DNA of 63,448 bases, filler included, from Reclinomonas americana ATCC 50394 (lineage: Eukaryota): the NCBI GenBank assembly GCA_048213135.1. It is 5 parts of 3 records of this genome, joined end to end, with 100 filler letters (N's around TTAATTAATTAA, not from the genome) between each part and the next. Parts side by side here need not be neighbours in the genome. Positions count along the whole stretch, not along the records: positions 1 to 10,673 come from PS015276.1; positions 10,774 to 34,940 come from PS015276.1; positions 35,041 to 46,407 come from PS015277.1; positions 46,508 to 61,288 come from PS015277.1; positions 61,389 to 63,448 come from PS015281.1. One strand, given 5' to 3'. The translations under genes were made by a program, and so were the position numbers. The notes under the pieces were generated by a model. It saw only the letters and a list, made by a program, of their open reading frames with translations, was not told the origin of the DNA and ran no database searches. Each line of letters begins with the position of its first letter. Within the stretch, counting starts at the first letter, position 1. Below, one piece after another: positions 2,998 to 63,448 of the stretch.

Positions 2998-5900
2998 TCA
3001 CGCCAAGTACCTGTAGGAGGCCTTGTTACCGGTGGACTCGTCATTGACGCGCTCCAGGAACTCCTTCTCAATCAGGGCATCAATGTTGCGCTTGATGTCG
3101 GCGACCTGCGGCTGGAAGCGCTCCTGCAGCAGCGAAATGACCTCGGCCAGCAGCGCGTGGTGCGGCAGTTCGCGGCGGGCCTTCATTACGCGGACGATGG
3201 CAGCCTGGAATAGTGATCGTGAGGGGAGATGATACAGCAAGAAAAATGGTGCAAAAGTTACACTCACCTGCAGCGCAAACTTGCGATCCTCCGTAATCAC
3301 CGTGTGCGTCGCTTGCTGCTCTTCCTTGGTCTCCTTTTGTGTTGCAATGTGCAGCGTGACCTTGCGTGACGGACTGCAAGCAGCACAGTGAGATATCGCC
3401 CATCTGATCACAATCTTCTCTCTCCGCAAACCTCTGGAATTCCGGATTCAAGTACAACATACTGCCGTCGTGAACGTGGCGCACCGACGGAGGCAAGCGC
3501 GAGTCACTGCTGGGTGGTGCCAGCAAACCACTTCGTTCCGCCGTCGAAGACACACACACCAGCTTGGCTTTCAGCAGCGACTGTTGGAAAAGTGAGGAGT
3601 CCACATACTATTTGTTACTTCAAACAACGTTGACGCAACATCCAGCTGCAACAGAAGGGATTGCCGGTCAAGCTGCGTGCGCTCGGCCACTTGCGCCACC
3701 GACAATTCCTACACGCGATGAGTGAGGAACTTGAACAAGATACTGAGCCAGCTGTCCAGAACGATTCCGCAACATCCCCCTCGTTGAACAGCAACAGCAG
3801 GCCAATCTGGTACGTTGTGCAGTGAACTTCGTAGCTGCGACCTACATGAAAGAAAAAACAGATGTCAAACAAGCATGCAACTGATGTAATGGCCCCTCAC
3901 AAAAAACCCCGACCGTTGAACAATGATGATGCTGACTTTAGCACTCCGCTGCTGTGATGATGCAGCCATTTGATGCGCCGACCTGTGTAGCGGCCAGCGT
4001 AGAAGCGCTCAAAGTTGTCGGCGCATCTGGCGAGCTGCGGAAGAATAAGCAGCTGAAACATCGAATGAGGTCTCAAAGTACAAACCTCGTCGGGGAGCGT
4101 AAACCCGCAGGCCGACTGCGTCATTGGCCACTGCACAGCGGTGCAAACCAGCACGCTAAATTCACCTGATTCGGGTGCAGAGAGAAGTGTGAGTGGCTAT
4201 GATTGTGTAGCAACGTCCACACTGACGCAACATGGCAACACTGCGCGTCCTTGCACCCACTGGCGGAACTGCGTGGTATTCTCCGCACTCAGCGAGACAT
4301 CGGCAAACATGCGCTGGAGGCGATTGGTGAATTCCCACTTGTAGACGTCCTGCGACAAGAAGGTCAGGTGATGGAGACGACAGGATGGAGGAAGAGGTTG
4401 GAAGCTCGGCAACAATTTCAACAAGTAAACAGACTAACTGCGGTTGCGATATGATGACGGAAACACAACGTGATCAGGGAAACAACCAGCTCGGAAGGAA
4501 TACACAACAAGATAAGGAAGAGGCAATCACACACAGACAATACTGGAAAGTGAACAGGAACACACAGCAAGGTCAAAAAGAGACACAAGCACACAGAAAA
4601 AGTTGGAAAGTGAACGGCCGTGATTGCAAGCTCGGTAGGAATACGCAGCAGGATAAGGAAGACCCCTGACATGCAAACACAGCTGGAAAGTGAACGATTG
4701 TGGTCGCAAGCTCGGCAGGAATACGCAGCAAGACAAGGAAGTGGCTACCACAAGCACGGAATGCTAGAATGTGAATAATTGTGATTGCAAGCTCGGCAGA
4801 AACACACAGCAAGATCAGAGAGAGACAGCCACGAGCAGACAAGGTTGGTAAGCAAACAGCCGTGGTTGCAAGATTGGAGGGAATACCAAGGAACATGCAG
4901 AAAAGCTGAAATGCATACTAACTGCAGATGCAATCTCGGCAAACACACACACAGCAAGATCAAGCAAAGCTGGGAAGTGAACAGTCGTGATTGCAGTCTC
5001 GGCAGGAATACACAACAACAACAGAGAGAGAGAGACAGTCACGAGCAGACAAAGCTGGGAAGAGAACAAATATAATTGCACTCTCGACAGAAACACACGA
5101 CAAGACCGGGAAGACGCAAGTTGGCATGCGCAAGATCTTCAATGCACGGCAAGATCAAGACAAAGCTGGAAAGTGAACAGACGTGGTTGCAAGCTCGGCA
5201 GCAATACGCAACAAGATCAGGAAGAGACAAACCCACGCAGACAAAGCTGGAAGTGAAAAATAACAGCTCCAAGCTCGGCAGAAGCTACCACACAGGGAAA
5301 GCTGGATCGGCACGAAACATGCAGCAAGATATAGAAGAGATAACCACATTCAAAGATAACTGGAAAGTGAACACCGCAAGCTCACAGAAACAACCAGCAT
5401 CGAGGACCGCACCACATCCCTTCTCCTTCGTTGTCACTCACCCTCAACCGACACACGGCCTCATTCTCCAGCTCCATGTCAAACGTATCCTGCACCAATC
5501 GTCGACACAAGTGCTTCTGATAGAATGTCTCAAACACGTCGCGATGTTGCAGGTAGCCCGACAAGTGAATCTAGTCGCATACACGTGAGAGATCATCACC
5601 ACTAAGCAGACAAAAGTAGCAGCGCTGCACACCGTATCGCTCAGTGCCTCCAGAGTACCACTCGTGCCCAGTGAGCGCGCCAGACGCGACGACGGTCGCA
5701 TGAGGATCGAAGTGTACTTGGCCAGTGTCTCGGCCACCTGATCGGAAGACAGCTCGTCTGGACGTCGCTCGGTGTTGTTCAAGAATCGCTGGCAGCCCTG
5801 CGCGGAGACGAGAAAAGTGAACAGCGAGTGGTAGGCCACACATATTTCCAATCCGCGTACCGCATGCATGGCCTCCACCATTGTGCACGAGTTGCTGAAT

Positions 5901-8900
5901 GTGTCAGCCACCATGCGCTGGAACTTGCGGTACACTTGGATGATGGCGGTGCAGAATTGTTGTGGGTCCTGCGAGTGTTGGAGACGAAGAGTGAATCACC
6001 GTCGGCAAACAATGAGAAAGCCCACAAAAGCCTACCTTTCTCAACTCTGGCGACAACTTTTCCACCTCCTCCACTCCCTGCTTGCAGACAAAGTCGGTGA
6101 AGACGCGCGAAAAGAGCAGAGAGCCGTCGTCGGTCTGTTGGAACAGGCGTTGGATGCGTTGCAGGTCCTCCAGGCGGTTGTACTCGAAGAATGCATTGCA
6201 TTCGGAGAGAATCAATTCCTTGCGAGAGTTGACCAGCACGTCGACGCAGCGGCGGATCAGCTGTGAGAGGGGGAGAAGGGGGGGGAGAAGGGGGGGGGGA
6301 AGGGGGAGGAAGGGGGAGAAGGGGAGAAGGGGAGAAGGGGAGAAGGGGGAAGGGGGAGAAGGAAAAGATGACAGAGAAGGAGGGTTAGTGGAAAACGTAC
6401 AGGGAAGAAGAGAGGAGTAGACGGTGCAAAGAGTAGCGAAACAAGACTGGCGGATCTGGTGGAGAATGAAAGAAGCGGAGAGATGCACGAATAACGGCAA
6501 AGTCGCGGAGTAAATCAGTGAATAATGGCGATAAATGAGTGAGAAGGAGGCAAGAGTCTCAGCATGATACGTCTTATAGAAGAAGTGAAAGAAGAAAACA
6601 CCAAAGCAATAAGACGGCTAGATGAGGCAAAAAAAGGGAAAGGAAAGTGATGACCAAGAGTCTCAACACGGCAGGCAGGAATCATCGAGAAGGAAAGTGA
6701 GTGATAGGAGAGTGCTAACCAAATGTGATGCTTGCACTAGTCATGGCGTAATTGAACGGAGAGCACACCCGTATCGAAACGACATCATGTCATAGAGATG
6801 GATGTCTCATGCGAAAGATGGGGGCGGCGGTTGGGAAGAGGTAATCGATGACAGAGATGTGCGTCTCAACATGACTGACTGGCAGCATGATGGAGACAAA
6901 AATGCAGAAGTTCGAGTCTAGACACGACTGTGCCTCATCGAGGACGTGAGAGGAGAAAGACTGGCGACGGAGAATGAGATGATGCCTGATCGAGGCAACA
7001 TGAGATAATGGAGGGCAAAAGTCCTGACAAGACAAACTGGCTGCGTGGAGAAAATGACGAGAAAAGAACGACTAACAGGGTGCTGATATCTGACAAATAT
7101 AGAGCATGTCTCGCAACGCACTCTTGTCCTCGTCGACGGGTGCAAGTACGACTGCACTCGGCGCTCCTCCTCCGCCAGTCGCTCCTCCATCTGCGCAACG
7201 CATATCAGCGAGGCCTCCCACTTCCCTTCTTTTCCAGGTCAATCGACTCACAATTTTCAAGTAATCCGACAGAGCGCATTTGGCGAGATACTCCTCCGCC
7301 TCGGCGTTGTAGTACTCGCCAGTGCGTCGCAGAAACTCCTCCTCAAAGTTCTCCTGGTAGAAGGCCAGTGGTGATTTGAGGTTGGCGCCCAGAGCCACTG
7401 CAGGAAGGGGGGGTGAGGAGAAGAGACAAGACGGGTGGAGAAATGGGAGAAGAACTCGGCGCACCATAACTATCCGTCACTCTCCGCAGAATCTCCCGAT
7501 CGACAATCTCCCGCCTCCTGTCAGCCTCGACGCACTGCACAAAGGCGTCGGTGATGCGCGCACGCAGCGGTCGGAAGAACTCGGTGCGCCACATTTCCAG
7601 GCCCAGCTGCGTGTGGAAGGGCGGTAAGCATGATGACATTCAAGAAGGCGAGCATGTTCTGTCGACGCAACATCGCGTGTCATCAGGAAATCGCCGCCTG
7701 GACGCGTCCGCTTCACCGAAGGCTTCATCACGAACTCGCGATTCTGCGGCATGACATTTGAGGAGAGTACGTGGCACGCAGCACAAAGGTCACACACGCA
7801 CACACTCACATTCACATGCACACAAGCAGACATGCACGCAAACACACACACAGGTACACAAGATACACACCCACACATGCACACGCACATTTGTGCGCGC
7901 AACCCCTCTCAGATAAACAGGATAAACTCACTCACTCGCTCTCACACGCATACAGACACACACAGGCACACAAGATACACATGCACACATGCACACGCAT
8001 TCGCGCGGACACACACACACAGACACACAGAGAGAGAATACAATTACACAAAACACAACAGTCACAAACGCCCACTCACACACTCACTCGAACACTCACT
8101 AACTCACTCACACACTCACGCACAGAGACAGACAGACATCCACACACCTACACACGCACACACTTACACACACACACCACACACAGACAATACACATACA
8201 CAAAACACAAAAGACACACACGTACACTCACTCACTCGAACACTCACTAACTCACTCACGAACTCACGCACAAAAACAGACAGACATCCACACACGCGCA
8301 CACGTACACACTTACACACACTCACCACACATAGACAATACACATACACAAAACACGGAAGACACAAACGCCCACTAAAACACTCGCTCACTCACTTACT
8401 CACTCACTCACTCACGAACAGAGAGGCAACGCAACGAGGTAAAGAAAGATGACGTGCACCACATCGAGCCCGAGCGAGTAGCGGCCCCACATGGTCGAGT
8501 ACACTTGCAGGAGCTGCGAGCTGCTGGCCGTCGCCACCAGGGTGTTGAAGCGCTGTGTCGGTGATGTTTGGGTGAGGACAGTTGGCAGAGTACGAATAGA
8601 GGAAGAGAGAGCACCTCCAGCAGCGTGCGAGAAACGTAGGCCTGCAACGCGAGTCGGAATTGGTGGTAGAGAGCCTCGGGTTGCGGGAGACCGGGTCGAC
8701 ATTTGTGGCCGCCGACTTCGGGTGGGGTGTTGAAGCATTGGCCGATGCAGACGCGGTAGACGTAGCTGGGGGAGAGGGAAAAGGGTGAGAGGGAGAAGGG
8801 TGAAGGGAGAAGGGTGAGAGGGAGAAGGGTGAGTGGGAGAAGGGTGAGAGGGAGAAGGGGAGAGGGAGAAGGGAAGAGGGAGAAGGGAGAGGGAGAAGGG

Positions 8901-8976
8901 TGAGAGGGAGAAGGGTGAGAGGGAGAAAAGAGGGAGAAGGGAAGAGGGAGAAGNNNNNNNNNNNNNNNNNNNNCTC

Positions 8977-9038
<62 letters not shown>

Positions 9039-10218: not shown

Positions 10219-10250
<32 letters not shown>

Positions 10251-10717
10251 CGAAACGCAGAAGAGATATGAGCGTGAATGATTGTTCAATGACTGAGCTC
10301 TGGTTTCCATCAGTGATTGCTCTTCTCTCTGCATACAACCTCTGTGCTCTCTCACACACACTCTCACGCACTCTCTTGTCGAGCTTGTGAGCGATCATTC
10401 GCGATCGTTGACATTGATTGAGCTTGTGTTCATCAGTGATTGCACTGCTCCTTTCTCTCCTGTCACACACATGCACACACACACACACACACTCTCTCTC
10501 ACACACTCACACACACACACTCTTGCCGTGTATATCGCTGAAGATCAGAGGGCGCGTGTGATTGCTCAATGACTGAGCAGTTGATTTCATCTCATCCTCA
10601 CTCTCGCTCTCTCTCATCAGGTGCACACGCGGTGGCCGTTCTCTCTTTTTCTCTCTCTCTCTCTCTCTCTCTCNNNNNNNNNNNNNNNNNNNNNNNNNNN
10701 NNNNNNNNNNNNNNNNN

Positions 10718-10729
10718 TTAATTAATTAA
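10718..10729. other. Assembly spacer TTAATTAATTAA (stop in six frames) within an N gap; also at 34985, 46452 and 61333
   Basis: Identical 12-mer flanked by N runs at four places. Confidence 0.95.
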
Positions 10730-10773
10730 NNNNNNNNNNNNNNNNNNNNNNNNNNNNNNNNNNNNNNNNNNNN

Positions 10774-11133: not shown

Positions 11134-12162
11134 GTTGTTTGTGACGCACTCGGTGCTGCAAATGATGCGGCAGGATACGTTTTCATTGGCCTCGAGTGTT
11201 GGACAGATCAAGGTTGGTAACTTGCTCTCGTTCTCGCCCTTGCCTGTCGACTCACCTCGCCATCCACAGGACAAGCTCTACAACATCACCGGCACTGCGC
11301 CGGAGCACCAGCGCGTGCTGCTAAAGGCCACTGATGGATGTGCGTTTGCCTCCCCGCCTCCCTTGACCCTCCTCGTCCGCTGACTTCTATCACCACCAGC
11401 AACGACGCTGAGCAACCTGGACGACGACAGCTCCCAACTGGGCTACTTTGGGGCCGCCGATGGCATGTACCTGCACGTGATTGATCAGGTACGGCACGAA
11501 ACCAACTACCATACCCTCTTCATCTCCCTCACTCACCCTCACCCTCACCTCCCTCCAGGACCCCTTCAAGAGCGTGGAGCAGCTGCAGGACGTGTCGCAG
11601 ATTGAAAAGTTCGAGCTGAGCGACGAGGAGTACGCCAAGCGCGATGGTATGCGCGCCCTTCTCTCTCCTTATCCTTCTCACACTCTCTCACGTTTTGCGC
11701 AATCAGGTACCTTCCTCAAATTCAAGCAGGCGCGCCCCGACCTCTTCGCGGCGGCCGAAGCCGAACGGGAAGAGCGCAGCCACGAGGGCGAGGAGGGCGC
11801 CGCGCGTGTCATCGTCGGCAGCCGGTGTCGCATCCAGTTGCCGGGCGGCAGTGCGCTGGATCGACGCGGCGTAGTCAAGTTTGTCGGCCGCACGCAGTTC
11901 CAGCCGGGCTACTGGGTCGGGGTGCACTTGGACGAGCCACTCGGCAAGAACGACGGATCGTTGCGTGCACTTTTTCCTCCAATCAGAGAAGTCTGCTTCT
12001 CCGCCCACTCATCCTTTCGTGCGCAGCGTCAAGGGCGTACGATACTTTACGTGCCCGCAGGCGTGCGGTGTGTTCGTGCGACCGGACAGCGTGGAGTGCG
12101 GTGATTTCCCGGAGCTAGATTTTGACGCCGAGCTGGAGGCGCTGGACGACGATGAGATGTAG
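11134..12162 (+). CDS. TBCB: Tubulin-folding cofactor B (Ubl + CAP-Gly); first exon not located
   Basis: LFVTHS..IK|DKLYNITGT..YLHVIDQ|DPF..EKFELSDEEYAKRDG; CAP-Gly GYWVGVHLDEPLGKNDGS|VKGVRYFTC..GVFVRP; acidic C-terminus ending DDDEM*. Confidence 0.95.
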
Positions 12163-12289: not shown

Positions 12290-13093
12290 TTACCGGCCAC
12301 TCGTGGCCTGGTGGAGGGCGTGCCGCAGGGCGGCCTGCACCTTGCCGTGACACCGTGGATCGTTGCTGCGGGCCTTGGCGGAGGCGTGTCCATTGCCGTC
12401 CACGATCAATTCGAGGAGGAAGATGGTCGAGGTGGATCTCTGGGGGAGGGAAAGGAGGAGGTGAGGGAAGGGGATTTAAGAAAAGGGAGAGACTGGACGG
12501 ACACGAGAGGTGCACAAAAGGGGGTGGATGAGGAAAGCAAGCACATCGAATGGTGGGAGCAGACAGCGACAAGGTTCTGAAGGGGAAGGCTAAGTGCCGG
12601 GAGGAAGAGGAAGTGTACGACAGCGTGCCCTCCGCAATGCGTCCTTGTGCGTGCGCATGCGAGGAATTGAAAAAGTGAAGTGCCAACTGCGCAACAACGG
12701 CACCGGGGACCGTCTTGTCAGAAGGGAATGCAAAGGGCTGAGTGCAAGCGGAACAGAGTGCACAGCGAAATGAAAGAGAGAGAGAGAGAGATGCGAATAG
12801 TCAATGAGCACAACCTTGCCTGCAGTGTCGCTCACTTCCGTTCCCACTCCCTCTACCCCTCCTTCTCCCATCACGCGCACGCAACAAACTGCCCGAATGC
12901 AAAGAACCGCGACGAATTGTTGGGACCAGCGCCGACAGCCACACACTTGATGCCAATGGGGGCCAGGCGAGCGGCCAGATCCTTGGCGGGAAGAACGCGA
13001 CCCACACGGCCGCGCACGTCGCCACTGTGTTGATAATGACAGTGAGAGGGGGAGGGAGACAAAGTGGGGGAGGGAGAGGGAAAGTGAGAAGGG

Positions 13094-45025: not shown

Positions 45026-48000
45026 TCAAGCCGTGGCATTCTCCGTCAGTTGCGTGTCGCTCTCGTGCAACAGGTGCAGCCGCAGCATGCGCACGCCGCG
45101 ACCCGGCACCGTCAGCGTGATACTGTCGTTGAAGGAGCCGAGATCGACGCGCGCCCACAAATCGCGCACCAGGTACGTGTGACCGCCAGACGGCACCAGC
45201 ACATTGTAGTTTAGCGTGAGGCTCACGGGGCTCGAGTTCTGCGAGTCAGAGAGGCAGGGGCATGAGACGGGGGTGAAAGGAGAGAGTTCATTTCAGGGAA
45301 GGGGTCACCTTGTTGAACAAGACCACGGCGTGCTGACCGTCGACCAGTTGCTGTGTTCGGAGTGGGAGAGTGAGTCACAGGGGGGAAAGGCGGAGGGTGG
45401 AGAGCACGGTGCACGGCACCTTGGACCAGATCTGCGTCGAGCCGTTGTCCACGCGAATGTCACCGGCGACGCCGAGCTTGTCTTGGTTGATGGCAATCAC
45501 CTGTTGAGAAACACAGAGGGAGGGGAGGGGAGGGGGGAAGGAGGGGGAGGGGGAAGGAAGAGAGGGGGAAAGAGAGGGGGAAAGAGAGGGGGAAAGAGAG
45601 GGGGGAAGAGAGGGGGAAGAGAAGGGGAAGGGAGGGGAAGAGAGGGGGAAGGAGGAGAAGGGAAGGGAGAAGAGATTAGGGAAAGAGAAGGGGGAAGAGA
45701 AGGGAGAAGGGGTAAGAGAGAAGGAAGAGAGGGGGAAAGAGGGGAAGGAAACGGGGAAGGAAAGAGAGAAGGGAAGGAGGGAGAAGGAGGGGAAAGGGGG
45801 GAGAGAGGGGGAAAGAGGGGGGAGAGAAGGGAAGAGCAATGTGTGAGAAACACAAGAGGGAGAGAAAAAGAGCGCTATGACTGTACCTCGGGATTGGTGA
45901 GCACGAGGGTCGTGTTGCTGCGCGGATCCATGTTGACAACATCGTTGCCCTGCAAGCGTGCGACTGTGAATCAGCAGAGGAAAACATGAGCTGCTGAAGA
46001 AAGAGCAGGGGCGACGCAACGGCCAACAGCGGGGCGTTCATCAGCGACCACAGCGACATGTGCGCCTGGGCAGCTGTAGGCGAAAGAGTGTGTCAGAGGA
46101 GACTTGCAGAGTGGTGCGATGGTACTCTTACTCGCCGGTCATGTTGCGATCGCCAAAGTCGCCGTTGCCAACCTGCACAGGATGTGAGTATGAAACGCGC
46201 AGGAGAATAGCAACGAGAAGGCTCACCTCCAACATGTCGGGGTCGTTCCAGCCACCAGGGCCTGTCGCATGGATGGGAGAAGGGTGAGGGAAGGAAAGGG
46301 AGAGAGGGAAAGAGGGGGAAAGAGGGGGAAAGAGGGGGAAAGAGGGGGAAAGAGGGGGAAAGAGGGGAAGGAGGGAGAGGAGGGAAGAGGGAGAGGGAAG
46401 GAGGAGGNNNNNNNNNNNNNNNNNNNNNNNNNNNNNNNNNNNNNNNNNNNNTTAATTAATTAANNNNNNNNNNNNNNNNNNNNNNNNNNNNNNNNNNNNN
46501 NNNNNNNAGGAGGGGGAAGGAGGGGGAAAGAGGGGGAAGGAGGGGGAAAGAGTAGGGGGAAAAGAGGGGAAAAGAGGGGAGGAGAGGGGAGGAGAGGGGG
46601 AAAGAGGGGGAAGAGAGGGGGAAGGAGGGGGAAGGAGGGGGAAGGGGAGAGAGAGAGAGGAAGGGGAGGGAAGGATGGAGAGTGACAGCACACACACAAT
46701 ACACATTGGCGAGCTCACCAGCGTACTTGCTGAGTCCACGCATGGAGTCGACAATCTGCAAAAACATGATTTACATACCACGCACAACGAGAGAAAGTTA
46801 GCAGCGAAAGAGTCCCGCACCTGCACCATGCGGTCCCAGCTGTGCAGGAGTCGTGAGTCATTACGCACATGCTTGTAAACTGGCACGCAAAACACGAACG
46901 CACCTGGCGTTGATGTCGCCAGTCGTGCGCCACGAATTGCCTGTCGTGAAGTATTGAGCACCGAGACGCACAAAAGTGAATAAATGACACAATCAACTCA
47001 CCAACAGGCATCGCCCACGACCTGGTGGCAACGGAGAGAATGAGTGAGCAACAAAAGACGAGTAACACTGACTGTGGTTTCACGTCTCACCATGGCTGGT
47101 CGACACCTGTGCATCGAACACGCAGTCAGACAGAAGGCTACACAGCGACTTTCATCGCACATTCCACTCACCCCACTCGCACATCGAGAAGAAAATCGGA
47201 CGACCACTGGCCAGCAGCGCGTCACGAATCTGCGCGTGGCAAAATGTTACACACACACGCACACATGTGCAAACACACCACCGACAGTCGACACACCTTG
47301 GGATAGCGGTCACGCGGAGTCATGCCGTCCGTGTAGCACCCTGCACAAGGTCAGCAAAACGGTTTCCCCACACACATGTGCTCTCCACAAGCACAACGCA
47401 ACAGTCGACCTTCAGGTAATCGACACCCTGCACGACAACTGGTGAGCGACGAGTGCAAAACAGGCAACACCACACAAGCACAACACACCATGCCCGCAAA
47501 CGTGTTGGCGTCCTTGGTCTCGTAGCCATAAATGCCCGGTCGGCCCTGGCACGTCTTGTAGCCCTGGTGTTATGCAAGCGCGTTGAGAATCACCGTGCAC
47601 TTTCTCTGTCTCTCTCGCTCGTCTCAGCGCACCGCATCCGTGTAAATGCCAAACTTGAGACCCTTGCTGTGCACGTAGTCGGCTGCAACCATACAGACAC
47701 ACACAAGCAGTGAGTTGCATGCAGCATATAACGCGTCCACTTGTCGCAACACACCAAGCGCCTTGACCCCCGACGGGAACTTCTTCGGATCCGCAATCTG
47801 CAACAGAGAGAGAGAGAAAGAGCAAAGGAGAAGGAAACGGGGCAAAGGAGATGAGAAGTGGTGAGTGTAGTTGAGAAAGGAGCTGAGAGACGCAGGCAGA
47901 GAGACGGAAAGAGGAGGAGAAGTGAAGAGTGCAGCTGAGAAGGAGACAGACAGAGACAGGCAGACAGAGATAGGCAGAGAGAGAGAGAGAGGAGGAGAGA

Positions 48001-50818: not shown

Positions 50819-52995
50819 TCAGTCACGTGGTGGCAGAGCGTGAGTGGGCCCACCGCGCGGTGGCACCCCCGCACCCTGTGATGTGGTCAGCAAGCAGAGG
50901 AGGATGAGGAAGAGAGCAAGACGGCATGGACGAACCATGGTGACTGGTGTCGACGAGTGTGGCATTGTCACTCGTTGTGGCGAGGCCATGTACATGCCGG
51001 GGTAACTGCGCGAGGTGCAATTGATGTGTGTTTCTGTGCGCATCCTCTCATTGATCTTGTACGCACCCCACAGAGGCACCGTAGGCGAACTGGAATGGCG
51101 ACGGTGGCATGGCGGGTGCGTACACGGGGCCTTGTGGGCTGAACAGCATCATTGGCTGCGCGAAAGTTAGTGTGTGGCACGCCAGGCAGGCGAAGGGGGA
51201 GCGACAACACCTGCATGTGTCGCGGTGGCTGTGGCGGCGGTGGTGGTGGGGAGGAGAACATGTAGTGGCTGGGTGGTGGGTGGCGTGTGGGCGGGGAGGC
51301 AAACACCATCTCAGGCGACACCATGATGGTGGTGGTACTGGCGGTGGTGGTCGTGGTGGCCATCGGCGGCGGTGAAGACATTGTGGCGGTCATCATCGGG
51401 GCCAGGCGCGGAGGAGGAGCAGGAGCCACGTCGATGGAGGAGTCGTCGACGTATTCGGGCTGCGGAGGGCGGGTGAGGAAGGAGTGGCCTGTGCGTGCGA
51501 TCGGGGTGCAGGTCGACTCACCTTGTATGCAGGCGGTGAGTCCCATGTGTGCCTGGCGCTGAAGGGAGGGAGGAGGGGGAATGGTGAAAGGGGAGGGGGA
51601 AGGGGGAAGGGGTGAGGGAGGCAGGAGGGAGGAGAAGCGAGGAAAGTGAGGAGGGGGAGGGGAGTGACAGAGAGAGAGTGTGTGAGAGTGAGAAAGACAG
51701 ACGCAACTGCGACCGAGAGGTGAAACGCGCGTCGGGTCGAGCAAATTGCACATGCAGTCGCATGCCAAACACCTCGCTGTTGTTCATGGTCTGTTGGTGC
51801 AGAGTGGGGTTCAGTTGTGAGAAGAACGGGAGGAGAGGAGGGGAATGGGACTCACGGCGACAGCATGCTTGGCATCCTTGTGCCGGACGAATGCGACAAA
51901 GCCGTACAGGAGACTCTCGTTGGTCTCCTTGTTCATCATGACGCGGCACGAGCTGATGGTGCCGAACTCCTTGAAGATCTGGTACAGTTGCTGCACGCGG
52001 ATGGCGGTGAGTGATGTGTCGGCGACCGTGACTAACACACAAGACGAACCCGGCTGTCGATTGAGTGATGCAGGTTGCGGATGTACAAGTTGGCGACACG
52101 CGTGCGCGGCGACGGTCGGTAGCCGGGTCGGAAGCGCCTGTGACGAGAGCGGTGAGCACGGACAACATGGAGCATCGGATGCATGCGCGCGCGACACACC
52201 TGGCGGGCGACAGGATCATCTCGCGCCGGTACAGCCGCGTGTAGTTGAAGTAGTCAATGGCTTCCTCGGCCTGGGTGTTGAAGGTGAGCAGGAGAGGGGG
52301 AGGGGAGGTGAGGCAGCAGTACCATTTCGGGAGTGAGGAACTTGACGTAGGCGTAGCCGCGTGATTCGAACGTGTCGGACGATCTGCGTGGCCTGCACGT
52401 GAGCACACAGAAGCACGACACGCAGACGTACGCACACACACACCTCACGAGTTTGATGTTCACAACCAGCAGGCCAGGGTGTGCCGAGAAGAAGCTGCAC
52501 AAAGACACAGTGAGAAAGGGGAACAGGCGGGGGAGAGCAAACAAGAAGGCAGTCAGTCGACTTTTGCAAGATGAGCTCATCGACAACGGGGTCGAGGTTG
52601 CTGCAGTGCACTGAGCCAGGCACCATCAAGCCCTCTTCTTCCTCTTCCTCCTCTTCTTCCTCTTCTTCCTCCTCCTCCTCGTGGAATGCCTCCTCTCCAT
52701 CCTCGTCAAACACGTTGTCTTGGTCGTCCACAGGCGACACCTCCCCACGCTGTGTGTGAGAGAGAGAGACAGAGAGAGTGACTTTTATGACAAGTTGTGT
52801 GATCAAAGTGACTTTCATGCTGACCACTGAGGCGGCCAATGCCGGCCACATTTCCTCCTGTTCTGCTCGCGTGTGTGTGGAGAGAGAGTGTGCAAGAGGA
52901 GGTTGGCGAGTGCGACGGAGAGCGCGTGGAGTGTGTCGCGTGTGTGCCTTGCGACGTGAGCTGCTTGGTGGATCGTGTGGTGTGGTGTCGGCCAT
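50819..52995 (-). CDS. Two-RRM RNA-binding protein (divergent PABP-like RRM1/2) with acidic N-terminus and Pro-rich C-terminus
   Basis: SVHCSNLDPVVDE..SRGYAYVKF; NLYIRNL..LYQIFKEFGTISSCRVM..YGFVAF..MNNSEVFGMRLHVQFA. Confidence 0.85.
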
Positions 52996-53683: not shown

Positions 53684-56600
53684 TTACATGTCTTCATCAA
53701 ATTCCTCATCCTCCACGTATTCCTCCTCTCTCCTCACCGGCTTCTCGCCACGCAGCACTGTATCATGCATGTCAGAGCTGACATCAGGTGCTCCCGGACT
53801 GGTGCGTTTAGAGCACTCACCAGCACGAGCGATCTCCTCCGTTGAAAGACAGCAGTCTCGAAGCAGTGTGGCCAGCAGGCCACGAGAGGTGTGGAGCAGA
53901 TGCATGGCCTGGGTAACGTATGGAAGAAGAACATTCCGGTTGGCATTGTTGTATTTCGCCAAATTTGCAGACGCCTTGTTACACGAGAAATCAGCAACAC
54001 AAGCCAAGCACGGCAGCGCATGCACCCAAAAAGACAAACCGCAGAGTAGCCACGATCATCGATTACAATCAGCGGTCTTTCGACAGCATCCACCAACTCG
54101 GCTCCTCGAATGCCACTTTTCTGATGATCGTTGCGTTAGTTGCCAGACACATCACAAGCCATTGAAAAAAACACAGAAACAACACACTAACGCTCACTTC
54201 GACAAAGTTACACATGCTTTCGAGCACACCCTCCACAGACTTGGCCGTTTTGCGACGTGCTTTCTCGGCACCGATATAAAGACTCTTGCCGAATGCTACC
54301 ATGACTGCGGATGACGGGCGACCGGGTCCCATAAAAGGTACTCCGCAGTTGTCACAAGCAAGCTCGAGAAGTACGCGCTGATGACGCAAGACTGTGGATC
54401 CCATCACCACGGGTGCCATGAGGCCGAATGCCTTCACCAGTATCCTCTTCCTGTTGCAGTCCTACGAGCGAGAAGTTAATGGCGGAATTGTAGATCACTA
54501 GGTGGCATGCAAAGATAACAGCACAATACGCAACAAGCAGTCTCGCCAGCGTCAACTGCTCGTTGACGCATAGCTTCATTGGATCAATCATGCGGTGCTG
54601 TGAAACGCAAACCCACGCAGTGTTGAGGTACATCTACACAGACTTCTCGCAGCAAGAGAAAGCAACGTCTGGCATACCTTGTTTTTCCCGTTTCCCTTTG
54701 CGCCAACGTCCTCATCCTCGCTCTCGGAATCATCCTCCAGCTCGTCCTCACTTTTCACCATGTCTTTCTCCCTCAATGCTGTTCACTTGCTTGTCAACAC
54801 ACGCGCACGCACGGCGACCACGAGGCAAAGCTGTCATACCTCGTTCACTGCACCACTCGGCGACACGTGCAATCTCCGCCTCAGACAGGCAACCATCACG
54901 AATCAGAGTGGCATGCAGGCCAGGATAGGTGTCAAGAGCCTCAATGGCCTGCGTAGTGAACGGTAGTAGAGGTCTCTGATTGCTGTGCTGCATCCCCGGC
55001 AAGCGTGACGACTCCTGCCATTCCCCAACACAGAAAGTGAGAAACGCCACCCACAATGCACTCCGAGCACAATGAAACTGCACCTCAGAATAGCCTCGTT
55101 CGTCCACCATAATCAGTGGTCTCTCAATGGCATTCGCCAGAGCAGCGCCACGCAGTCCACTCCTCTGCATAATGGCGCATGCATTAGCACTGGCCTTCAA
55201 TTCAGTCGTGCGGGGTGGACGCTGCTCACCTCGACAAAGTCGCTCATGCTCTGGAGCACTCCCTTAACTGACTTCAGCGTCTTGTAGCGCGTACCTCGAA
55301 CGAAATGGCCAAGACTCTTGCCGAATGAGCTCACGACTGCCGACGAAAGACCAAATGTTTTCGACGAGGGGAAGCCACACTCCTTGCACGCGAGTTCAAG
55401 AAGAACACGCTCATGATGGCGGACAGTGCTTGGCAGCGCAATCGGCGCCATGCTACCGAACGCCTTGATCAGTATCCTCTTCTTGTTGCAGCACTGTACT
55501 CGTACGAAACACGTCGGAAGTGCGATGACACTAAATCAGCCGGACGACTAATGAAAAGGACTTGACTGAAACACACGAAACAAGCAGCCTCGCCAGCATC
55601 AGCTGTTCGCCTCTGCTCATATTCGCACGGCCACTCTCCCGTCGCTGCGAATGCGCACCATGAAATGTTGTCACAGTGTGCCCCATAATCCATGGTCGTA
55701 CCTTGCTCGTGTCACCTTCACCCATAGCGACGTCCTCATCTTCTTCCTTGTCGACCCTCGAATCACCCTTCAGATCCTCTTTCTCCTTCTTCATCTCCTC
55801 TTTCACCAGCATCTTCGTGTCCAGCAGAGCTGCATCTCGCTTGTCAGCCCAGACACAACACACAGTAGAACGCACCCGATGCCATCAACCTCTTTCGCTG
55901 CACCACTTGACGGCCCGAGTGATTTCCACCACCGAGAGACAGCCGTCTCGAATCAGCGACACCTGCAAGCCAGGACACTCACGCAGGGCCCGCGCGGCTT
56001 GGGCGATGAACGGCAGGAGACGGTCGTTACACTTCCGTTTATACTCCATCATCTTCCATGACTCCTGCAACACGACAGGCATGGTAGGAAAACACGTGAG
56101 TCAACACAAACCGGGAAACGCAATGGAGCGCAAAATGGAATGTTGGCACACCTCTGAATGGCCACGTTCATCCACCACAACCAGTGGTCTCCTGATCGCA
56201 TTCGCCAGAGGAGCGCCGCGCAGTTCACTCTCCTGTGGTGCAGCACATGCATCGATGTTGGTTCACTTTCCAGTTGCGTGTGAGATGGACAACGGATAGA
56301 CACTCACCTCGATAAATGTGCTCATGCGATGAAGCACTCCTTCGACTGACTCACGCGTGTAGTGGCGTGCCTTGTCGACGACATTGCCAAGGCTCTTGCC
56401 GAAAGAGTCCACGATTGCGGACGACGGGCTGCCCACTCCTGATGATGGGATGCCGCACTCTCTACAAGCAAGCTCAAGAAGGACGCGTCGATAATGCAGG
56501 ACTGCGGATGGCTTCACACAAGAAGCCATGATGCCGAATGTCGTCACCAGTATCTTCTTCTTGTTGCACCGCTGTTTGCACACAGACACGCACGCACCAA

Positions 56601-58275
56601 GTGTTATAACAGGCAAGCACATGGCAGAGCCGACCAATCTGCCATGCTGAAGTGCTGCGGACATGCACACGCAACAAGCAGTCTGTCCAGCAGCATTCGC
56701 TCGTCCTTGCTCAGATCTGCGTTTAATGCTTGGCGATTGCCTTTGACGCGCTGCACCCCATCCAACATCCACAATCAAGATCTCAAAAAACCTGCCTCAC
56801 CAATCACAGATATTCACATCACCGAACCTTGCTTTGCTTTGATTCTTCGTCATCGTCACTGCCTGCATCCACCTGTGAACACAAGGCATCCATGTTTGGC
56901 CGAGTCCACGAAGACACGCACATTCGCGCGCAACCTCTATCAACCATGTATTATTTGCTGCGTACCTTGGCGTCATCGTCTTCATGTTTGATACCATCCT
57001 TCTCCTCTTCATCTTCGTCTTCCTCCTCTTCCTTTGCCAACATATTCACATCGCCGGATTCTGCGTTGTGCTGGTAAACCCCAGTGAAAGCATAACCAAC
57101 AGGTGAATGGGATTGCAGACCTTTCGATCGGCACCAAGCGACGGCGCGTGATATCCTGGCCTTGGAGAGGTGGTTTTCTCGAAGCAGGGCAGCCATGAGA
57201 CCGTCGCACTCGAGCATCGCATCCATGGCCTGCTTGACTAACGGCTGAAGATGATTTCTCCTGGCCTTGGAGGGTAGAGGCAGTTTCTCCCACGATTCCT
57301 GTCACGTACAAGCAGCGAGAGAATCAGTCGACGTGATCGCAACAGCCAGAAGAAGACCGTGCAGACACGACGCACCTCCGAGTATCCACGCTCATCCACC
57401 ACAATCAATGGTCTCTCCACAGCATCCACAAGTGCCGCACCAGAGAGTTGACTCATCTGCAGAATGTGATCATCTGAAGGTCGATTCACCAACCACGGTC
57501 GTTCAGGAACGTGCGCCGCTCACCTCGATGTAGTTGCTCATTCTCTGGAGCACATCCTCCACAGACTTGGGCGTTTTGTTGCGCGAATTATAAGCAGTGT
57601 CGCCAAGACTCTTGCCGAATGCGCACTTGACTGCCGACGACACCGACAATGGCATCCAGCAGTCGTCACAGGCAATATCCAAGAGAACATTCTGATGGCA
57701 GATGACTGTGGATTCTTGAACAATGGATGCCATCAGGCCGAATGCCTTCAGCAGAATCCTCTTCCGATTGCATCGCTGTGAGTGACACAGGAAGAGGAGC
57801 GCTTGGAATGAGGAGAAGGAGGAGACTGTTGGATTGCAATGATGACAGAGAGAGAGCATGCACACGCAACAAGCAGCTTGTTCAGTAGCAGCCTCTCGTC
57901 TGCGCTTAACTCGTCTGGCTCTTCTGCCGCCCGAGCCTTGCTGCGCTGTGAATCCACAACATGCATCATTGACAAGAAAGAACCCAAAGGCAGGTTGATG
58001 AACAAGAACACCAATGACAGCGACTGAATTCAAACCTTCTTCTTCTTCTTTGGAGGTGCAAGCTCATCATCGCTGTATGAATCCACCTGCAGCAATTGAA
58101 GAGAACCTCAGGTGTTACTGTGATGCACAAGCGAGAGGCAAGTGAGACGCGTGCTTCGTCGGAACTCACCTCCAGAGATCGCTTGCGGACCAATGTCTCT
58201 TCTGAGTCATGTGCGAGCAAGTCCTCACTGTGATCCACCAGAGACGAGTCGACTCGCCGCCTTCTCGCACGTTGC
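53684..58275 (-). CDS. Hypothetical putative nuclear protein with four tandem ~190-aa CxxC-containing domains separated by acidic linkers
   Basis: Four homologous exon sets starting at 57945, 56750, 55644 and 54597 with the same intron positions; linker exons keep frame; PPKKKKK upstream. Confidence 0.85.
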
Positions 58276-58782
58276 TGTACAATCATGCCAATAGAGAGAA
58301 GATTAGTGAGAGACTTGCTCGTCTGGGATGACACAATCAATGTACCTCGACGATGCCCGCCATCGATGTGTGTTTCGTGTGCTCCTGGCGAGCAGCTGTG
58401 TGTGCATGTACCACCCTGGTTAGGCATCACGCGACGCAAGGACACCAAAGACTGCGACAGCAAGAGAGACANNNNNNNNNNNNNNNNNNNNNNNNNNNNN
58501 NNNNNNNNNNNNNNNNNNNNNNNNNNNNNNNNNNNNNNNNNNNNNNNNNNNNNNNNNNNNNNNNNNNNNNNNNNNNNNNNNNNNNNNNNNNNNNNNNNNN
58601 NNNNNNNNNNNNNNNNNNNNNNNNNNNNNNNNNNNNNNNNNNNNNNNNNNNNNNNNNNNNNNNNNNNNNNNNNNNNNNNNNNNNNNNNNNNNNNNNNNNN
58701 NNNNNNNNNNNNNNNNNNNNNNNNNNNNNNNNNNNNNNNNNNNNNNNNNNNNNNNNNNNNNNNNNNNNNNNNNNNNNNNNNN

Positions 58783-59410: not shown

Positions 59411-59774
59411 CGCTGCGTGATGCAAGAAACTAAGAGAGAGAAATTCGTCGATCCGAACAACAAGGACGAATGGAGGAGGGGTGTGGTGGGGACGGTGAGA
59501 CGGAAGAGGGGAGTCAGAGATTTGTGCAACCTTGGGTGCATCGTTAATTGCGACTGTTCTCCGTGACTAGAGATGCATGTCCCTTTGTTTGGATATCTCA
59601 TTCCTGCAGAGAACACGGATCAGAGGAAGTTGGTGCTGAGATCACAGAATACAACAGCACACATGAGCCTCTGCATCATGGCAGCATCACCTCATCGGAC
59701 ACCGAGGAAGAGTTGCCGATAGCACGCAACATCGTCAAAAAATCCCGTTCACTGTAACCCTCACCACTCACTCA

Positions 59775-61110
59775 CTACACATCCACCTTTAACGCCCCAT
59801 TCAGCCGACCGATAAAGTTACCGCTGATCAGCACACTTCGACAGTCGACCGACAACAGCAACTGCGTCTCCAGTATGCCGACAGCATTCGAGCCCGTAAC
59901 CCGATCGAGCTTGACGGTGCCGGTGGGTAATATGGACTCGAGCGCACGCTTCAGCCGACTCATCTGCTGCTCCGCACTCCGTTCTCCACCGCCTCCCTCC
60001 TCCTCATCATCATCGTCCTCGTCCTCGCCATCGACGCTGGTGTAGTGAATAACAATCTGCGACGAATCGCCGTCGTACATCACCGTATTGTGTCGGGCAT
60101 TGTCGGCCGTGAAGTGTGACACCAACAGCAGGTCGAGATAGGAGGCGAGGACGCGGGGATGTTGTTGTTGTTGCTGCTGCTGCTGCACCAGTGATGGTGG
60201 CGGTTCACTGCCGGCCGTGACCGGCCACATTGCTGCCGTGGCATTCACCATGGCTGGTTTCGACGTGGGGTGAGGGAAACTAGAACTTGCATCACACACA
60301 CTGCACTACAAACCCGTCGCCTGCAGTGCCTGCACCGAGAGCTCGTCGACTGCATGGGCGGCCGCCGTTTGCCTCTGTTCGAGTTGTATGAGGCGCTCGG
60401 AGGCGGCACGCATCTGTGATACATCATGAGCACATTGCCGGGCGATTCTTTGTTTTTTGTGATGCAACTGTTTCCTCCCGTCGACGCTCTTCTGCGCGCG
60501 GCGAAGGTGAAAGTCGACTGCGCTCGTGTTGCGCGAGGTCCCCCAACTTGGAGAGCTGGTCCACCAGTGAGTGACACCAACAAACGAACGACGGACACGA
60601 GAGATGTGTGTACCTCTTGTCGANNNNNNNNNNNNNNNNNNNNNNNNNNNNNNNNNNNNNNNNNNNNNNNNNNNNNNNNNNNNNNNNNNNNNNNNNNNNN
60701 NNNNNNNNNNNNNNNNNNNNNNNNNNNNNNNNNNNNNNNNNNNNNNNNNNNNNNNNNNNNNNNNNNNNNNNNNNNNNNNNNNNNNNNNNNNNNNNNNNNN
60801 NNNNNNNNNNNNNNNNNNNNNNNNNNNNNNNNNNNNNNNNNNNNNNNNNNNNNNNNNNNNNNNNNNNNNNNNNNNNNNNNNNNNNNNNNNNNNNNNNNNN
60901 NNNNNNNNNNNNNNNNNNNNNNNNNNNNNNNNNNNNNNNNNNNNNNNNNNNNNNNNNNNNNNNNNNNNNNNNNNNNNNNNNNNNNNNNNNNNNTGAGAGT
61001 GGACTGATGGAGTGGTGCGTGCAGGGTCTGCTGCGGTGTGCGGAAGAACTCGATGTACACAATCGGCGAACGTCATCCATTGCACGGTGCTGGGACGAGC
61101 GAGTGCGTGC
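59775..61110 (-). CDS. Hypothetical multi-exon protein
   Basis: Exons DWQVHALARPSTVQWMTFADCV.., DQLSKLGDLAQHERSR..EET|, MRAASERLIQLEQRQ..QAT|AMVNAT..LASYLDLLLVSHF..FIGRLNGALKVD; no family recognised. Confidence 0.6.
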
Positions 61111-61502
61111 ACTTGCCAGTCTGCAACACGCCTCGCTCACCGTGGCCACTCGCACGCGACAGGCCGCCTCTCAGGTGCGTTTCAGTGGTGGGGGGGGCGG
61201 GAGGGTATTTTTTGTCTCTCTGACGAAGGCATTTGGGGCAGCTGGCGGCGGCCGAGAAGGAGCAGGTGGATGCCAAGCTCAAGGCCACNNNNNNNNNNNN
61301 NNNNNNNNNNNNNNNNNNNNNNNNNNNNNNNNTTAATTAATTAANNNNNNNNNNNNNNNNNNNNNNNNNNNNNNNNNNNNNNNNNNNNAAGGGAGGGAAA
61401 GGGAGGAGGTGAGGGAAAGGGAGAGGGGAGGGGAGGGAAGGGGGAAGGGGGAAAATGGAAAGAGAAGAAGAGGCAGAAGATACAGATATATGAGATTTGG
61501 CA

Positions 61503-61660
61503 ACAGCACAACACAACACAACACAACACCACACAACACAACACAACACAACACAACACAACACAACACAACACAACACAACACAACACAGCACAGCACA
61601 GCACAGCACAGCACAGCACAGCACAGCACAGCACAGCACAGCACAGCACAGCACAGCGAA
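61503..61660. repeat. (ACACA)n grading into (GCACA)n pentamer microsatellite in a dynein intron
   Basis: Direct reading. Confidence 0.92.
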
Positions 61661-61857
61661 GCGCAGCACAGCATAGCGCAGCGCAGAAGAGTACAGCATA
61701 CCACAGCACAAAATACAATGCAGAGCAGAGTTGCAAAGAACAGCTGACCACACGAAGTGCATAGCACAGCACGGAACAGCACAGAACAGCACAAAACAAC
61801 GCAGAACAGAACAGCACAGCACCACACACTTCCATACACAATGCAAGACAGACGAAC

Positions 61858-63448
61858 CCTCTCCAAAGCAGCATCAATCTCGTCGAGCTGCTCCTGGAAA
61901 AGCGGACGCTCGACCTCGAGCAGGGAGGTGAGGATGGTATTGTACATGCTGACGATGAGGTCGAGCTTGGAGGTCTGCGCGCGGTACACGTCGACCTGCT
62001 GGTAAATGTCCTGTGCCTCGGCCGGCACCGCAAACACCGACTCCGGGTCGGCACCCGTGTTGATCTTCTCCACGTAGTGCACCTCACGGAGGAGACGCAC
62101 AAGTGCCGGGTCAAAGTTGACGTACAGCAGGCGAGTGGCACCGTCGCGACGCAGCAGCGGCTGCTTCAGCTTCTCCTTGGAGACGGTCGACACGTCGGCC
62201 GCCCAGTGCTGGTACTGAGCGCGCTGGTAGTCGTGCAGCAGAGCGGCCAGCGACTGCTGCATCTTCAGCACCTCCTTGGCCTCCTCCGACTGCAACAGCG
62301 ACATGTTGAGGCGATGGAAGGTGGCCATCGGCTCCTCAATGCGCTGCAGCAGGCCCTTGCACCACGCAATGGCGCCAGTGGTCGGCGGCATGTTGCTGTA
62401 GGCCGGTGGGTGGTCACGGAACGCGTGGAAAATCTCCTGCGTCTCGTGCAAATCCTGGCTGTAGGCACTGTGAAAATGGGAAAGCGGGAGGCGGGTGGGT
62501 GAGTGGATTGGTACAGCGGACGACTATGGTCATGCGGAGAGAGAGAAACGCAACGTCAGCAGCTGTGCCTGCTTCTTCTCCAGGTCGGTGCGAATAATGT
62601 CGCGGTCAAGCAGACCCTCAAAGCTCTCCACCAGCTTGAAGGCGGCAAAGATGGAGCCGCAATCCTCAAAGCCCTTGCCGAGAACAGCGCTGCATGGCAC
62701 AACATTAGAGAGAAGCGAGAAGAAGAGATGATGATGATGATGATGATGATGACGCACCCCAATCGTCTCTCCAGCTCCTTGATGGTGCTGCGGAAGCTGT
62801 GGAAGTCGTCCTCGAAGCGGGTGACGCTGACGTCGAGCAGATCGTACTGGACACCGCGGAAGCGCTCCAGAGCCTCGGCAAACTCGGCGTGAATCTGGCG
62901 GGCGCTGTTGGTCAGATTGCGACCCTGCGTGCCGCCAATCTCAATCTCGGCCAGCTTGTCAAACTGCAGACGCGTCTCCGTCAGGTACTGAATGTCGTTG
63001 CAGCGCTCGAGGAACAGGTCGAGGCGGTGGAAGAGTGCCGGGTTCTGGATACGCCAGGGGAATTCGGGGAACTCGGCGGCCACCTTGGCCTTGTACTCGA
63101 AGAAGCAGTCCTTGAAGCGACCGCACACGTCGAGTGTTGTGTTCAGCTTGTCGGCCGACTCTTGTGGCTCAATGTCAAAGATCTTGCCGGCGTCCACAAA
63201 TTGACGGGCCTGGCGGGGCGGGAAAAAAGGTAGTGGTGAGCAAAAGGAAAAAGAGAGTACGAGAGGGAGGGAGGGAGGGAGCTACGACGCACCTGCTCCA
63301 CCAAGTCGTTGCAGATTTCGCGAACGAGGCAGACGAGGCGTGTGGGCGTGCGGTAGGCCTCCGAGTTGGTCCACACGAGGTAAATGAGGTGCATGATGCG
63401 CGGGAACACCGTCGTCAGTGCCGGGAACTCGACACGTGTGGGCGACGT
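61858..63448 (-). CDS. Axonemal dynein heavy chain, outer-arm beta type (DNAH9/11/17-like), DHC_N1 region, partial
   Basis: IYLVWTNSEAYRTPTRLVCLVREICNDLVEQ, LFHRLDLFLERC, LAEIEIGGTQG, NMPPTTGAIAW, LLYVNFDPALVRLLREVHY, LLEVERPL. Confidence 0.93.

Follow-up and report, generated by a model that had tools for sequence, protein, structure and literature searches.

A probable second class of 5' splice sites with a GTTGCG motif in Reclinomonas americana

Splice-site recognition is usually taught as a process with a single register, in which the G at position +5 of the intron is nearly invariant. Does this description hold for Reclinomonas americana? We have analysed a stretch of 63,448 nucleotides (nt) from this eukaryote (ATCC 50394, GenBank assembly GCA_048213135.1), which we will call the window; all positions given below count along it. 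A first-pass annotation had proposed that many of its introns start with GTTGCG(T), as if an ordinary donor had received one extra T, and that such sites make up a major donor class. The question has three parts: whether these sites are donors, whether they form a class, and how they are read. Judged from frames, homology and paralogy, the GTTGCG(T) sites are very probably real 5' splice sites. Our data support a major donor class, present in about 25 of roughly 170 introns, which is about one in seven in the window. We give a probability of about 0.6 to the complete reading, namely that they are genuine GT-AG donors of the major spliceosome, which form a discrete and motif-specific class and are read through a displaced block on the intron side.

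The motif itself is found where it had been reported: GTTGCG is present at all 24 listed coordinates, always on the strand of the corresponding gene. The variants are also present, GTTGAGT at 24767 and GTTTCGT at 40950 and 55581 (the last one previously placed at about 55580). On both strands of the window we count 71 copies of GTTGCG, compared with 41.22 ± 6.01 in 100 shuffled sequences which preserve dinucleotides; none of the shuffles reaches 71. The excess of about 30 copies is near the number of claimed donors. Within predicted gene spans 47 copies are in sense and 18 in antisense orientation.

A search which ignores the sequence of the donor also finds them. We used a semi-Markov parser which scored coding sequence by codons and dicodons, acceptors by a matrix, and introns by a length prior and by their composition. 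It was seeded from segments defined by Pfam or tblastn and then self-trained. Its donor score was flat: any GT received −4 and any GC −8, with no motif and no exon-side positions. In the genes that were kept, this donor-blind parse placed 171 introns. No donor hexamer is more enriched in it than GTTGCG, with 15 of the 168 GT donors as compared with 47 of the 3172 sense GT sites; it is thus 6-fold commoner at donors than in the background (hypergeometric p = 6.7e-9). GTGCGT comes next, with 11 donors from 42 sense copies. The GTTGCG donors comprise 14 of the 24 listed sites and an unlisted one in the cullin gene, at 4231. When a self-trained table of donor hexamers was added to the parser, 19 of 171 introns had a GTTGCG donor and 16 of the 24 listed sites were recovered. 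It is also possible to forbid a given donor in the donor-blind parse and measure the score that is lost: 44.1 for GTTGCG, 41.9 for GTGCGT and 12.2 for GTGAGT, as against 0 to 1.5 for three control hexamers of similar abundance (GTGGCG, GTCGCG and GTGCTG). The description as a major class is borne out by these counts, since GTTGCG is as frequent as GTGCG (19–22 parser donors) and GTGAG (17–23).

The parse is noisy. It mis-set the junctions at 56675, 35821, 51707, 21120 and 21226, where paralogy, splice-site quality or homology favours the sites annotated before. Its counts are therefore lower bounds for both donor classes. The level of noise is illustrated in the AP-4 beta gene (20054–20075, minus strand), where a textbook CG/GTGCGTGG donor which ends a conserved exon was missed and a GTGAAG 17 nt further on was taken instead.

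The exact boundary can be placed by homology or paralogy, with the caution due to sequence comparison, at about nine junctions in the genes for dynein, cullin, AP-4 beta, TBCB and a repeat protein (Table 1). In a junction test every frame-compatible GT/GC..AG pair within 30–36 nt was scored against relatives. Nine GTTGCG junctions were submitted to it: five ranked first, two tied for first place (3773 and 3639) and two were second (7671 and 4231). Three canonical junctions served as controls and all of them ranked first. The sites at 21226, 21120, 8435 and 62554 win by 7.5 to 11 points, the one at 12885 by 1.7. Removal of the introns clearly restores a continuous homologous protein at the same four sites, at 11960 and in four repeat units; at 12885, 3773, 3639, 7671 and 4231 continuity is consistent with the proposed donors, not decisive.

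The individual cases are as follows. In the dynein heavy chain gene, comparison with five relatives (P0001 and others, by tblastn) reveals two matched blocks separated by 87 nt which are inserted in frame. The junction at 62554 is the best of 18 stop-free frame-compatible pairs, with a score of 109.6 versus 99.0 for a GC donor 3 nt downstream. In the AP-4 beta gene six homologues could be compared: 21226 scores 62.3 versus 51.8 for the GC alternative and 21120 scores 68.3 versus 57.3, each one being the best of 6 pairs. The join at 21120 falls inside a block which has equal length in the six homologues, and the spacing of the N-terminal blocks equals that of the relative P0133 once both introns are removed. 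Towards the C-terminus, 12885 is at the top by a small margin (43.5 versus 41.8, 41.3 and 41.2), with a spacing that also fits P0133. In TBCB the match to the Pfam CAP_GLY profile reaches position 43–44 at the donor and continues from 43–44 at the acceptor; the split codon lies in the core of the domain.

The cullin gene has five such introns. At 8435 a relative of 796 amino acids (aa), P0121, aligns to 8436 and resumes at 7743 with no gap; the junction scores 56.5 versus 49.0 for GC. The other four are less clear. The matches to P0121 and to the Pfam Cullin profile stop exactly at 3774, with a junction score at 3773 equal to that of the GC alternative. At 7671 a frame change is required to reach the LGLEMWR exon matched by P0121; the score of 33.5 is level with the GC alternative and under the 36.5 of a 47-nt GC-AG pair. 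At 4231 the Cullin profile continues from about 473 to 474 across the junction, which scores 56.0 versus 57.5 for the GC alternative. The intron at 7744–8435 has a peculiar sequence: it contains GT-rich repeats, with dozens of GTGAGT/GTGTGT look-alikes just downstream of GTTGCG. Of all these sites, only the GTTGCG one shares the frame of the conserved exon that follows.

The repeat protein (53685–58363, minus strand) consists of at least four tandem paralogous units in which intron positions are kept, and the donor at a given site is GTTGCGT in some units and GTTTCGT in another. Four units share the end of an exon (..LL) and the start of the next one (.CN.K.IL), and this fixes phase-0 junctions at 57870, 56675, 55581 and 54534. 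In the unit of 56675 the donor chosen by the parser, at 56668, shifts the frame and breaks the paralogous next exon. At 54534 the parser found the correct donor and placed the acceptor 11 nt too far.

The class has properties of its own. We have compared 25 curated GTTGCG-class introns with 60 short GTRNG introns from the donor-blind parse. The most striking difference is found at the last base of the exon: a G at −1 precedes 2 of the 25 GTTGCG donors versus 45 of 60 ordinary ones (Fisher p = 1.5e-8). Exons have a G content of 0.308, and the class falls short of this figure as well (binomial p = 0.007); its commonest base at −1 is T (10/25). The donor-blind output alone gives 1 of 15 versus 50 of 67 (Fisher p = 1.4e-6). 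An earlier hand count of 2 in 23 becomes 2 in 24 for the listed sites, and the dependence of the −1 base on donor class is real. At the other end of the motif, +7 is T in 20 of 25 GTTGCG donors; the corresponding +6 position is T in 29 of 60 canonical ones, which have G at +3 in 47 and C at +4 in 27.

Both the inserted base and the tail behind it are restricted. Donors of the form GTNGCG have T as the variable base (15–19 of 47 sense sites), while GTAGCG (0/1), GTCGCG (0/20) and GTGGCG (0/31) are not used. When GTT is followed by other canonical tails the sites are seldom or never donors: GTTGAG in 0 of 10 sense sites, GTTGTG in 0–1 of 40, GTTACG in 0 of 2 and GTTTCG in 1 of 7. The contrast between GTTGCG:GTGCG and GTTGAG:GTGAG is significant (Fisher p = 7.7e-4). 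The first-pass annotation had summarized the class as the majority donors plus one extra T. As a general rule this is too broad, since GCG is required behind the extra T. There is also a second group of donors with T at +3 which have G at +5 (GTTTG and GTTCG, for example at 4085, 37408, 40143, 50935, 52049, 58035 and 60313). They retain G at −1 in 9 of 12 cases, like ordinary donors, so that the loss of this G goes with the displaced GCG block and not with T at +3 itself.

In the rest of the intron no such differences are apparent. All 25 curated introns start with GT and end with AG. A branch-like CTNAY motif is found in 19 of 25 GTTGCG introns versus 44 of 60 ordinary ones, and its median distance to the 3' end is 19 nt in either group. 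The pyrimidine content is 0.66 versus 0.62, the acceptor has C at −3 in 21 of 25 versus 58 of 60, and the median length is about 67–70 nt in both. Intron phases 0, 1 and 2 occur 10, 2 and 3 times versus 40, 17 and 10 times, a similar spread. The likeness of the 3' halves fits the major spliceosome and not a separate type of intron. We also considered mobile introns similar to introners, which were rejected: an all-against-all blastn-short comparison of the curated introns under 200 nt and free of N gave two matches only, one of 14 nt between repeat paralogues and one in a CT run.

How could such donors be read? In the main donor of the window, G/GUGCGU, the GCG(U) block occupies positions +3 to +6; in the GTTGCG class it is preceded by an extra U, which is obligatory, and stands at +4 to +7. 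Base pairing of the displaced UGCGU block, with the 5' end of U1 and later with the ACAGA box of U6, would either be moved by one position or leave the extra U as a bulge; cleavage would stay at the sole GU. We propose that G at −1 would not be needed because recognition would rest on the intron side. The pairing register and the small nuclear RNA (snRNA) sequence which reads the motif are the parts that we infer.

Registers of this kind have precedents in humans. Both the one-position shift and the +2/+3 bulge of U1 have been validated (Tan et al. 2016, PMC4856993). According to the same paper, all validated non-canonical registers account for 1.5% of 201,541 human sites, and 68 sites are predicted to use the +2/+3 bulge (its Table 3). 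The human shifted sites of GUUAAGU type (Roca and Krainer, cited in PMC4856993) resemble ours: they have GU, an extra U and a tail which comes one position late, and they are cleaved at GU. Their helix can contain the +1 G instead of the −1 G, in line with the low frequency of −1 G here, and the GCGU tail of our class, though not its exon side, fits a one-position move of the U1 pairs. However such sites are rare in humans, whereas in the window one motif serves about one intron in seven. The class also differs because it needs GCG and not a better-pairing tail, and because −1 G is avoided and not merely dispensable. In the bulged register the extra U beside the +2 U could bulge and the remainder would be canonical. 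With such a bulge, inserted bases other than U should also be accepted and a −1 G should be of advantage. In the window only U is tolerated at +3 (GTAGCG, GTCGCG and GTGGCG are unused) and −1 G is depleted (2/25).

Several points weigh against the reading we prefer, that of major-spliceosome donors with a displaced block. The results come from a single 63-kb window, and all junctions are inferred from frames, homology or paralogy. The donor-blind parser missed 10 of the 24 listed sites, and 76 of its 171 donors fit no class. Nearest-neighbour energies are not favourable either: a standard U1 block with GUUGCGU is predicted at +0.5 kcal/mol, while the unused GUUGAGU has −2.7. It follows that plain shifted or bulged pairing with a standard U1 does not explain the use of GCG only. 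The bulged register predicts that −1 G should help (−4.2 to −10.5 kcal/mol with G), yet this base is avoided. Finally, in a fully shifted helix exon positions −1 and −2 of the class would be expected to copy −2 and −3 of ordinary donors, and they do not.

The alternative which survives best, although we hold it to be doubtful, is that a co-evolved or additional U1 snRNA reads the motif, with two donor classes defined by U1 and one major spliceosome. There would then be two donor length classes because U1 has changed, an explanation which we can only offer as tentative and which takes two forms. In the first one the U1 block would be complementary to GUGCGU, with G opposite C, as in Mastigamoeba, and possibly C opposite the +3 G: GUGCGU would pair perfectly and GUUGCGU, out of register, would keep a helix of five pairs in the displaced position. 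In the second form a second U1 gene would be fully complementary to GUUGCGU in the normal register. The exclusive use of GCG behind the extra U (GTTGAG and GTTGTG being practically absent as donors) and the preference of canonical donors for G at +3 and C at +4 are both in favour of a changed U1. The energies agree: a U1 with G opposite C gives −4.2 to −6.2 kcal/mol for GUUGCGU and −0.7 to −1.5 for GUUGAGU, an order which is reversed with the standard block. On the other hand, the 5' end of U1 is otherwise almost invariant, and a changed U1 leaves the avoidance of −1 G unexplained.

Comparison with other species gives arguments in both directions. Modified U1 pairing blocks have been described in Entamoeba and Mastigamoeba, together with standard and modified U1 candidates in Physarum (Roy and Bowser 2022, preprint, 10.1101/2022.06.08.495308), so that a precedent exists. 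In Mastigamoeba the donor consensus has C at +4 (GUGCGC) and the U1 block has changed to match it, which demonstrates that the block can evolve. But Entamoeba and Mastigamoeba have one consensus and one U1, whereas here two donor length classes coexist in the same genes. The same report indicates that Mamiellales and Thecamonas have donors with C at +4 and nevertheless a standard U1; donor composition alone does not predict a changed U1. The Mamiellales, a group of green algae, have rigid GTGCG(T/C) donors (Irimia and Roy 2008, PMC2483917), and GTGCGT is also the main donor here. In the literature searched we found no report of an extra-T donor class in Mamiellales. The window is far more intron-dense, and the databases searched contain no close relative of its proteins. 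We conclude that a changed U1 is possible and is not implied by the donors.

A division of 5' splice sites into two major classes is also known: an exon-side class AG//GU and an intron-side class //GURAG (Parker et al. 2022 eLife, PMC9803359; Open Biol 2025, PMC11732430; for LUC7 classes, PMC11842720). They represent a trade-off between exon-side and intron-side pairing, and GTTGCGT looks like an extreme intron-side class. However, as those sources describe them, the two classes share one register and overlap in sequence; the classes found here are discrete and differ by an inserted base. Furthermore, such a trade-off explains why −1 G would be dispensable, not why it is avoided. Donors with a non-canonical register are thus already known as a kind; the new part is their presence as a major, discrete and motif-specific class. 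We found no report of GTTGCG or GUUGCG as a donor class in the open literature, a search with subscription journals and supplements outside its scope and therefore weak evidence.

Returning to the nature of the introns, they might be a diverged minor-spliceosome (U12-like) class with its own long and rigid 5' motif and no exon-side consensus, which we consider improbable. The 5' motif is indeed long, near-invariant over 7 nt and lacks −1 G, and minor introns are greatly expanded in one known lineage, Physarum. Nevertheless we take GTTGCG to be unlike the U12-type 5' consensus, and the branch-like motif (CTCAY/CTGAY), its distance to the 3' end, the pyrimidines, the acceptor, the length and the phases are those of the ordinary introns described above.

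Even less probable is that these are GC-AG introns which start three bases further in (GTT/GCG...), with GTT as the end of the exon. Each GTTGCG contains a GC at +4/+5 which is always in frame with the same acceptor, and in the cullin gene this reading is slightly better at 4231 and ties, or nearly so, at 3773, 3639 and 7671. Elsewhere it fails. It adds one residue to the fixed-length blocks at 21226, 21120, 8435 and 62554, where it loses by the margins already given, and the core of CAP-Gly would likewise receive an extra residue at 11960. The unit at 55581, a paralogue with the same intron position, excludes it altogether, because GTTTCG has no GC three bases in. This reading also needs an unexplained exon-end consensus GTT, and its donor, GCGT.., would match the local consensus only at the first G.

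The least likely explanation is an artefact, either of sites picked by hand to fit frames (5 of 27 are unsupported or ambiguous) or of homopolymer errors which turn GTGCG into GTTGCG in a gappy assembly with 25 N runs: the class was recovered by a parser blind to donor sequence, the motif is strand-asymmetric (47:18) and in excess over shuffles, and erroneous insertion of T predicts −1 G in about 75% of cases and an equal effect on GTGAG, against 2 in 25 and 0 GTTGAG donors observed.

Table 1. Introns with a GTTGCG-type donor in the window. A slash marks the exon–intron or intron–exon boundary. "Blind" means that the donor was chosen in the donor-blind parse, "new" that the site was absent from the first-pass annotation.
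Position	Strand	Gene	Length (nt)	Donor	Acceptor	Phase	Basis and remarks
3581..3639	-	cullin	59	GAT/GTTGCGTC			blind; junction score tied at 33.0
3709..3773	-	cullin	65	GAT/GTTGCGGA			blind
4166..4231	-	cullin	66	CAT/GTTGCGTC			blind; new
7607..7671	-	cullin	65	GAT/GTTGCGTC			blind
7744..8435	-	cullin	692	CTC/GTTGCGTT	CGCAG/AAT		
11960..12026	+	TBCB (CAP-Gly)	67	ATC/GTTGCGTG		2	blind
12440..12885	-	AP-4 beta, C-terminal	446	TTT/GTTGCGTG			blind
20345..21120	-	AP-4 beta	776	TGG/GTTGCGTA			G at -1; contains a 20-N gap
21143..21226	-	AP-4 beta	84	AAA/GTTGCGGA			
25222..25283	+	hypothetical gene	62	GTC/GTTGCGTG			parser with donor table; new
25385..25441	+	hypothetical gene	57				candidate, ambiguous; in frame, stop-free; parser took GTACAG at 25373, same acceptor
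27206..27285	-	PH gene (first-pass name)	80	GTG/GTTGCGTG	CAAG/		G at -1
35821..35895	+	large gene (CCDC162-like in first pass)	75	AA/GTTGCGCA			read by eye
36668..36734	+	CCDC162-like	67	CAA/GTTGCGGC			blind
37008..37080	+	CCDC162-like	73	GTC/GTTGCGTC			blind
38977..39046	+	CCDC162-like	70	CAA/GTTGCGCC			only with self-trained donor table
39914..39977	+	CCDC162-like	64	GCT/GTTGCGTC			blind
40329..40391	+		63				candidate, ambiguous; in frame, stop-free; parser reads through
45950..46020	-	GH27 (alpha-galactosidase-like)	71	GCC/GTTGCGTC			blind
47341..47402	-	GH27	62	ACT/GTTGCGTT			blind
51559..51707	-	RRM protein	149	CA/GTTGCGTC			
54462..54534	-	repeat protein	73	CTT/GTTGCGTA	CGTAG/GAC	0	acceptor set by paralogy
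55494..55581	-	repeat protein	88	CTT/GTTTCGTG		0	variant donor; paralogy, blind
56572..56675	-	repeat protein	104	CTT/GTTGCGTG		0	paralogy
57776..57870	-	repeat protein	95	CTT/GTTGCGTG		0	paralogy, blind
62468..62554	-	dynein heavy chain	87	AC/GTTGCGTT	CACAG/T	2	blind

The other introns in Table 1 have evidence of variable nature. In the large CCDC162-like gene, the donor-blind parse replaced 38977 by an in-frame GTTTTG 12 nt downstream. In the same gene the intron at 35821, together with a G/GTGCGT intron at 35937–36005, keeps a long open frame; the parser chose a GTCGCC/GTACAC pair. On splice-site quality 35821 is likely to be right. The GH27 gene is identified by three short Melibiase matches in Pfam. 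Its exons have only 25–50 nt, too short for a homology test of the junctions. In the RRM protein, positions 13–57 of the 70 in Pfam RRM_1 lie in the exon before 51707, so that this exon must extend until the RRM fold is complete. Directly behind the motif the sequence becomes CT-rich, as is typical of introns; the cut made by the parser comes too early, at 51751, and falls within the RRM. Both the limit of the RRM and the quality of the splice site make 51707 the likely donor. The donor at 27285 comes from the donor-blind parse, in a gene with a weak score (17). The frame has to change at 25222; in the donor-blind parse the same acceptor was joined to a GTGGGA at 25201.

Part of the original list does not stand. 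The donor proposed at 34730 is out of frame with the sole visible acceptor, at 35115; a canonical GTGCGA at 34716 fits, and there are masked N runs inside the intron. Four more sites are ambiguous: the candidates at 25385 and 40329 need not be spliced out, being in frame and free of stops, and the variants at 40950 and 24767 have frame-compatible rival donors.

The window is eukaryotic and intron-dense. Its introns are short, with a self-trained mean of 68 nt and a standard deviation of 10. Some of the CT-rich ones can stay open in frame and are thus present inside long open reading frames. The Pfam domains found are the N-terminal region of dynein heavy chain, cullin, Adaptin_N, CAP-Gly, pieces of GH27 (Melibiase_2 and Melibiase_C) and RRM. 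Full-length relatives identify the adaptin gene as AP-4 beta-like, and a protein atlas matches the dynein gene to "axonemal dynein". The best matches in the protein collection have 46% identity for dynein and 41% for cullin; the organism's own proteins are absent from it and a cullin exon used as query had no match. A search of metagenomes with a dynein exon of 203 aa gave 156 matching pattern stretches, none of them confirmed. A search of the window with Rfam at the gathering threshold gave no matches and no snRNA.

Two other features are worth describing. In the plus strand there is an open frame of 948 codons (29179–32022), with a high coding score, almost no predicted introns and no Pfam match; the genes around it have an intron every 100–150 nt. 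Pairs of N runs (2 × 44 N with exactly 12 bases in between) are found at 10674–10773, 34941–35040, 46408–46507 and 61289–61388. They look like an artefact of masking or scaffolding and not like true gaps; one of them lies inside the disputed intron of 34730.

The closest relative that we encountered is P0125, a protein from a Logan contig, 71% identical across one AP-4 beta exon (20069–20242 in the window). Its public gene model runs through the CA-/CT-rich introns which flank this exon on both sides. This suggests that automatic gene calls are poor in this lineage. Genes with two donor classes will be mis-called by gene finders which have learnt only one donor matrix, and the read-through model of P0125 fits this worry.

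In humans the non-canonical registers are a fringe of about 1.5% of the sites, each one proven singly by minigenes (PMC4856993). A genome with a displaced-register motif at about every seventh intron would amount to a natural experiment. The GTTGCG introns sit in essential and conserved genes, such as those for dynein, cullin, AP-4 beta and a tubulin cofactor. The class could reveal how U1, U6 and U5 set the point of cleavage with a pairing block displaced by one base. The co-evolution of U1 and splice sites would become directly testable, and if it is U1 that has changed, the avoidance of G at −1 would mark an undescribed rule for the choice of the cleavage site.

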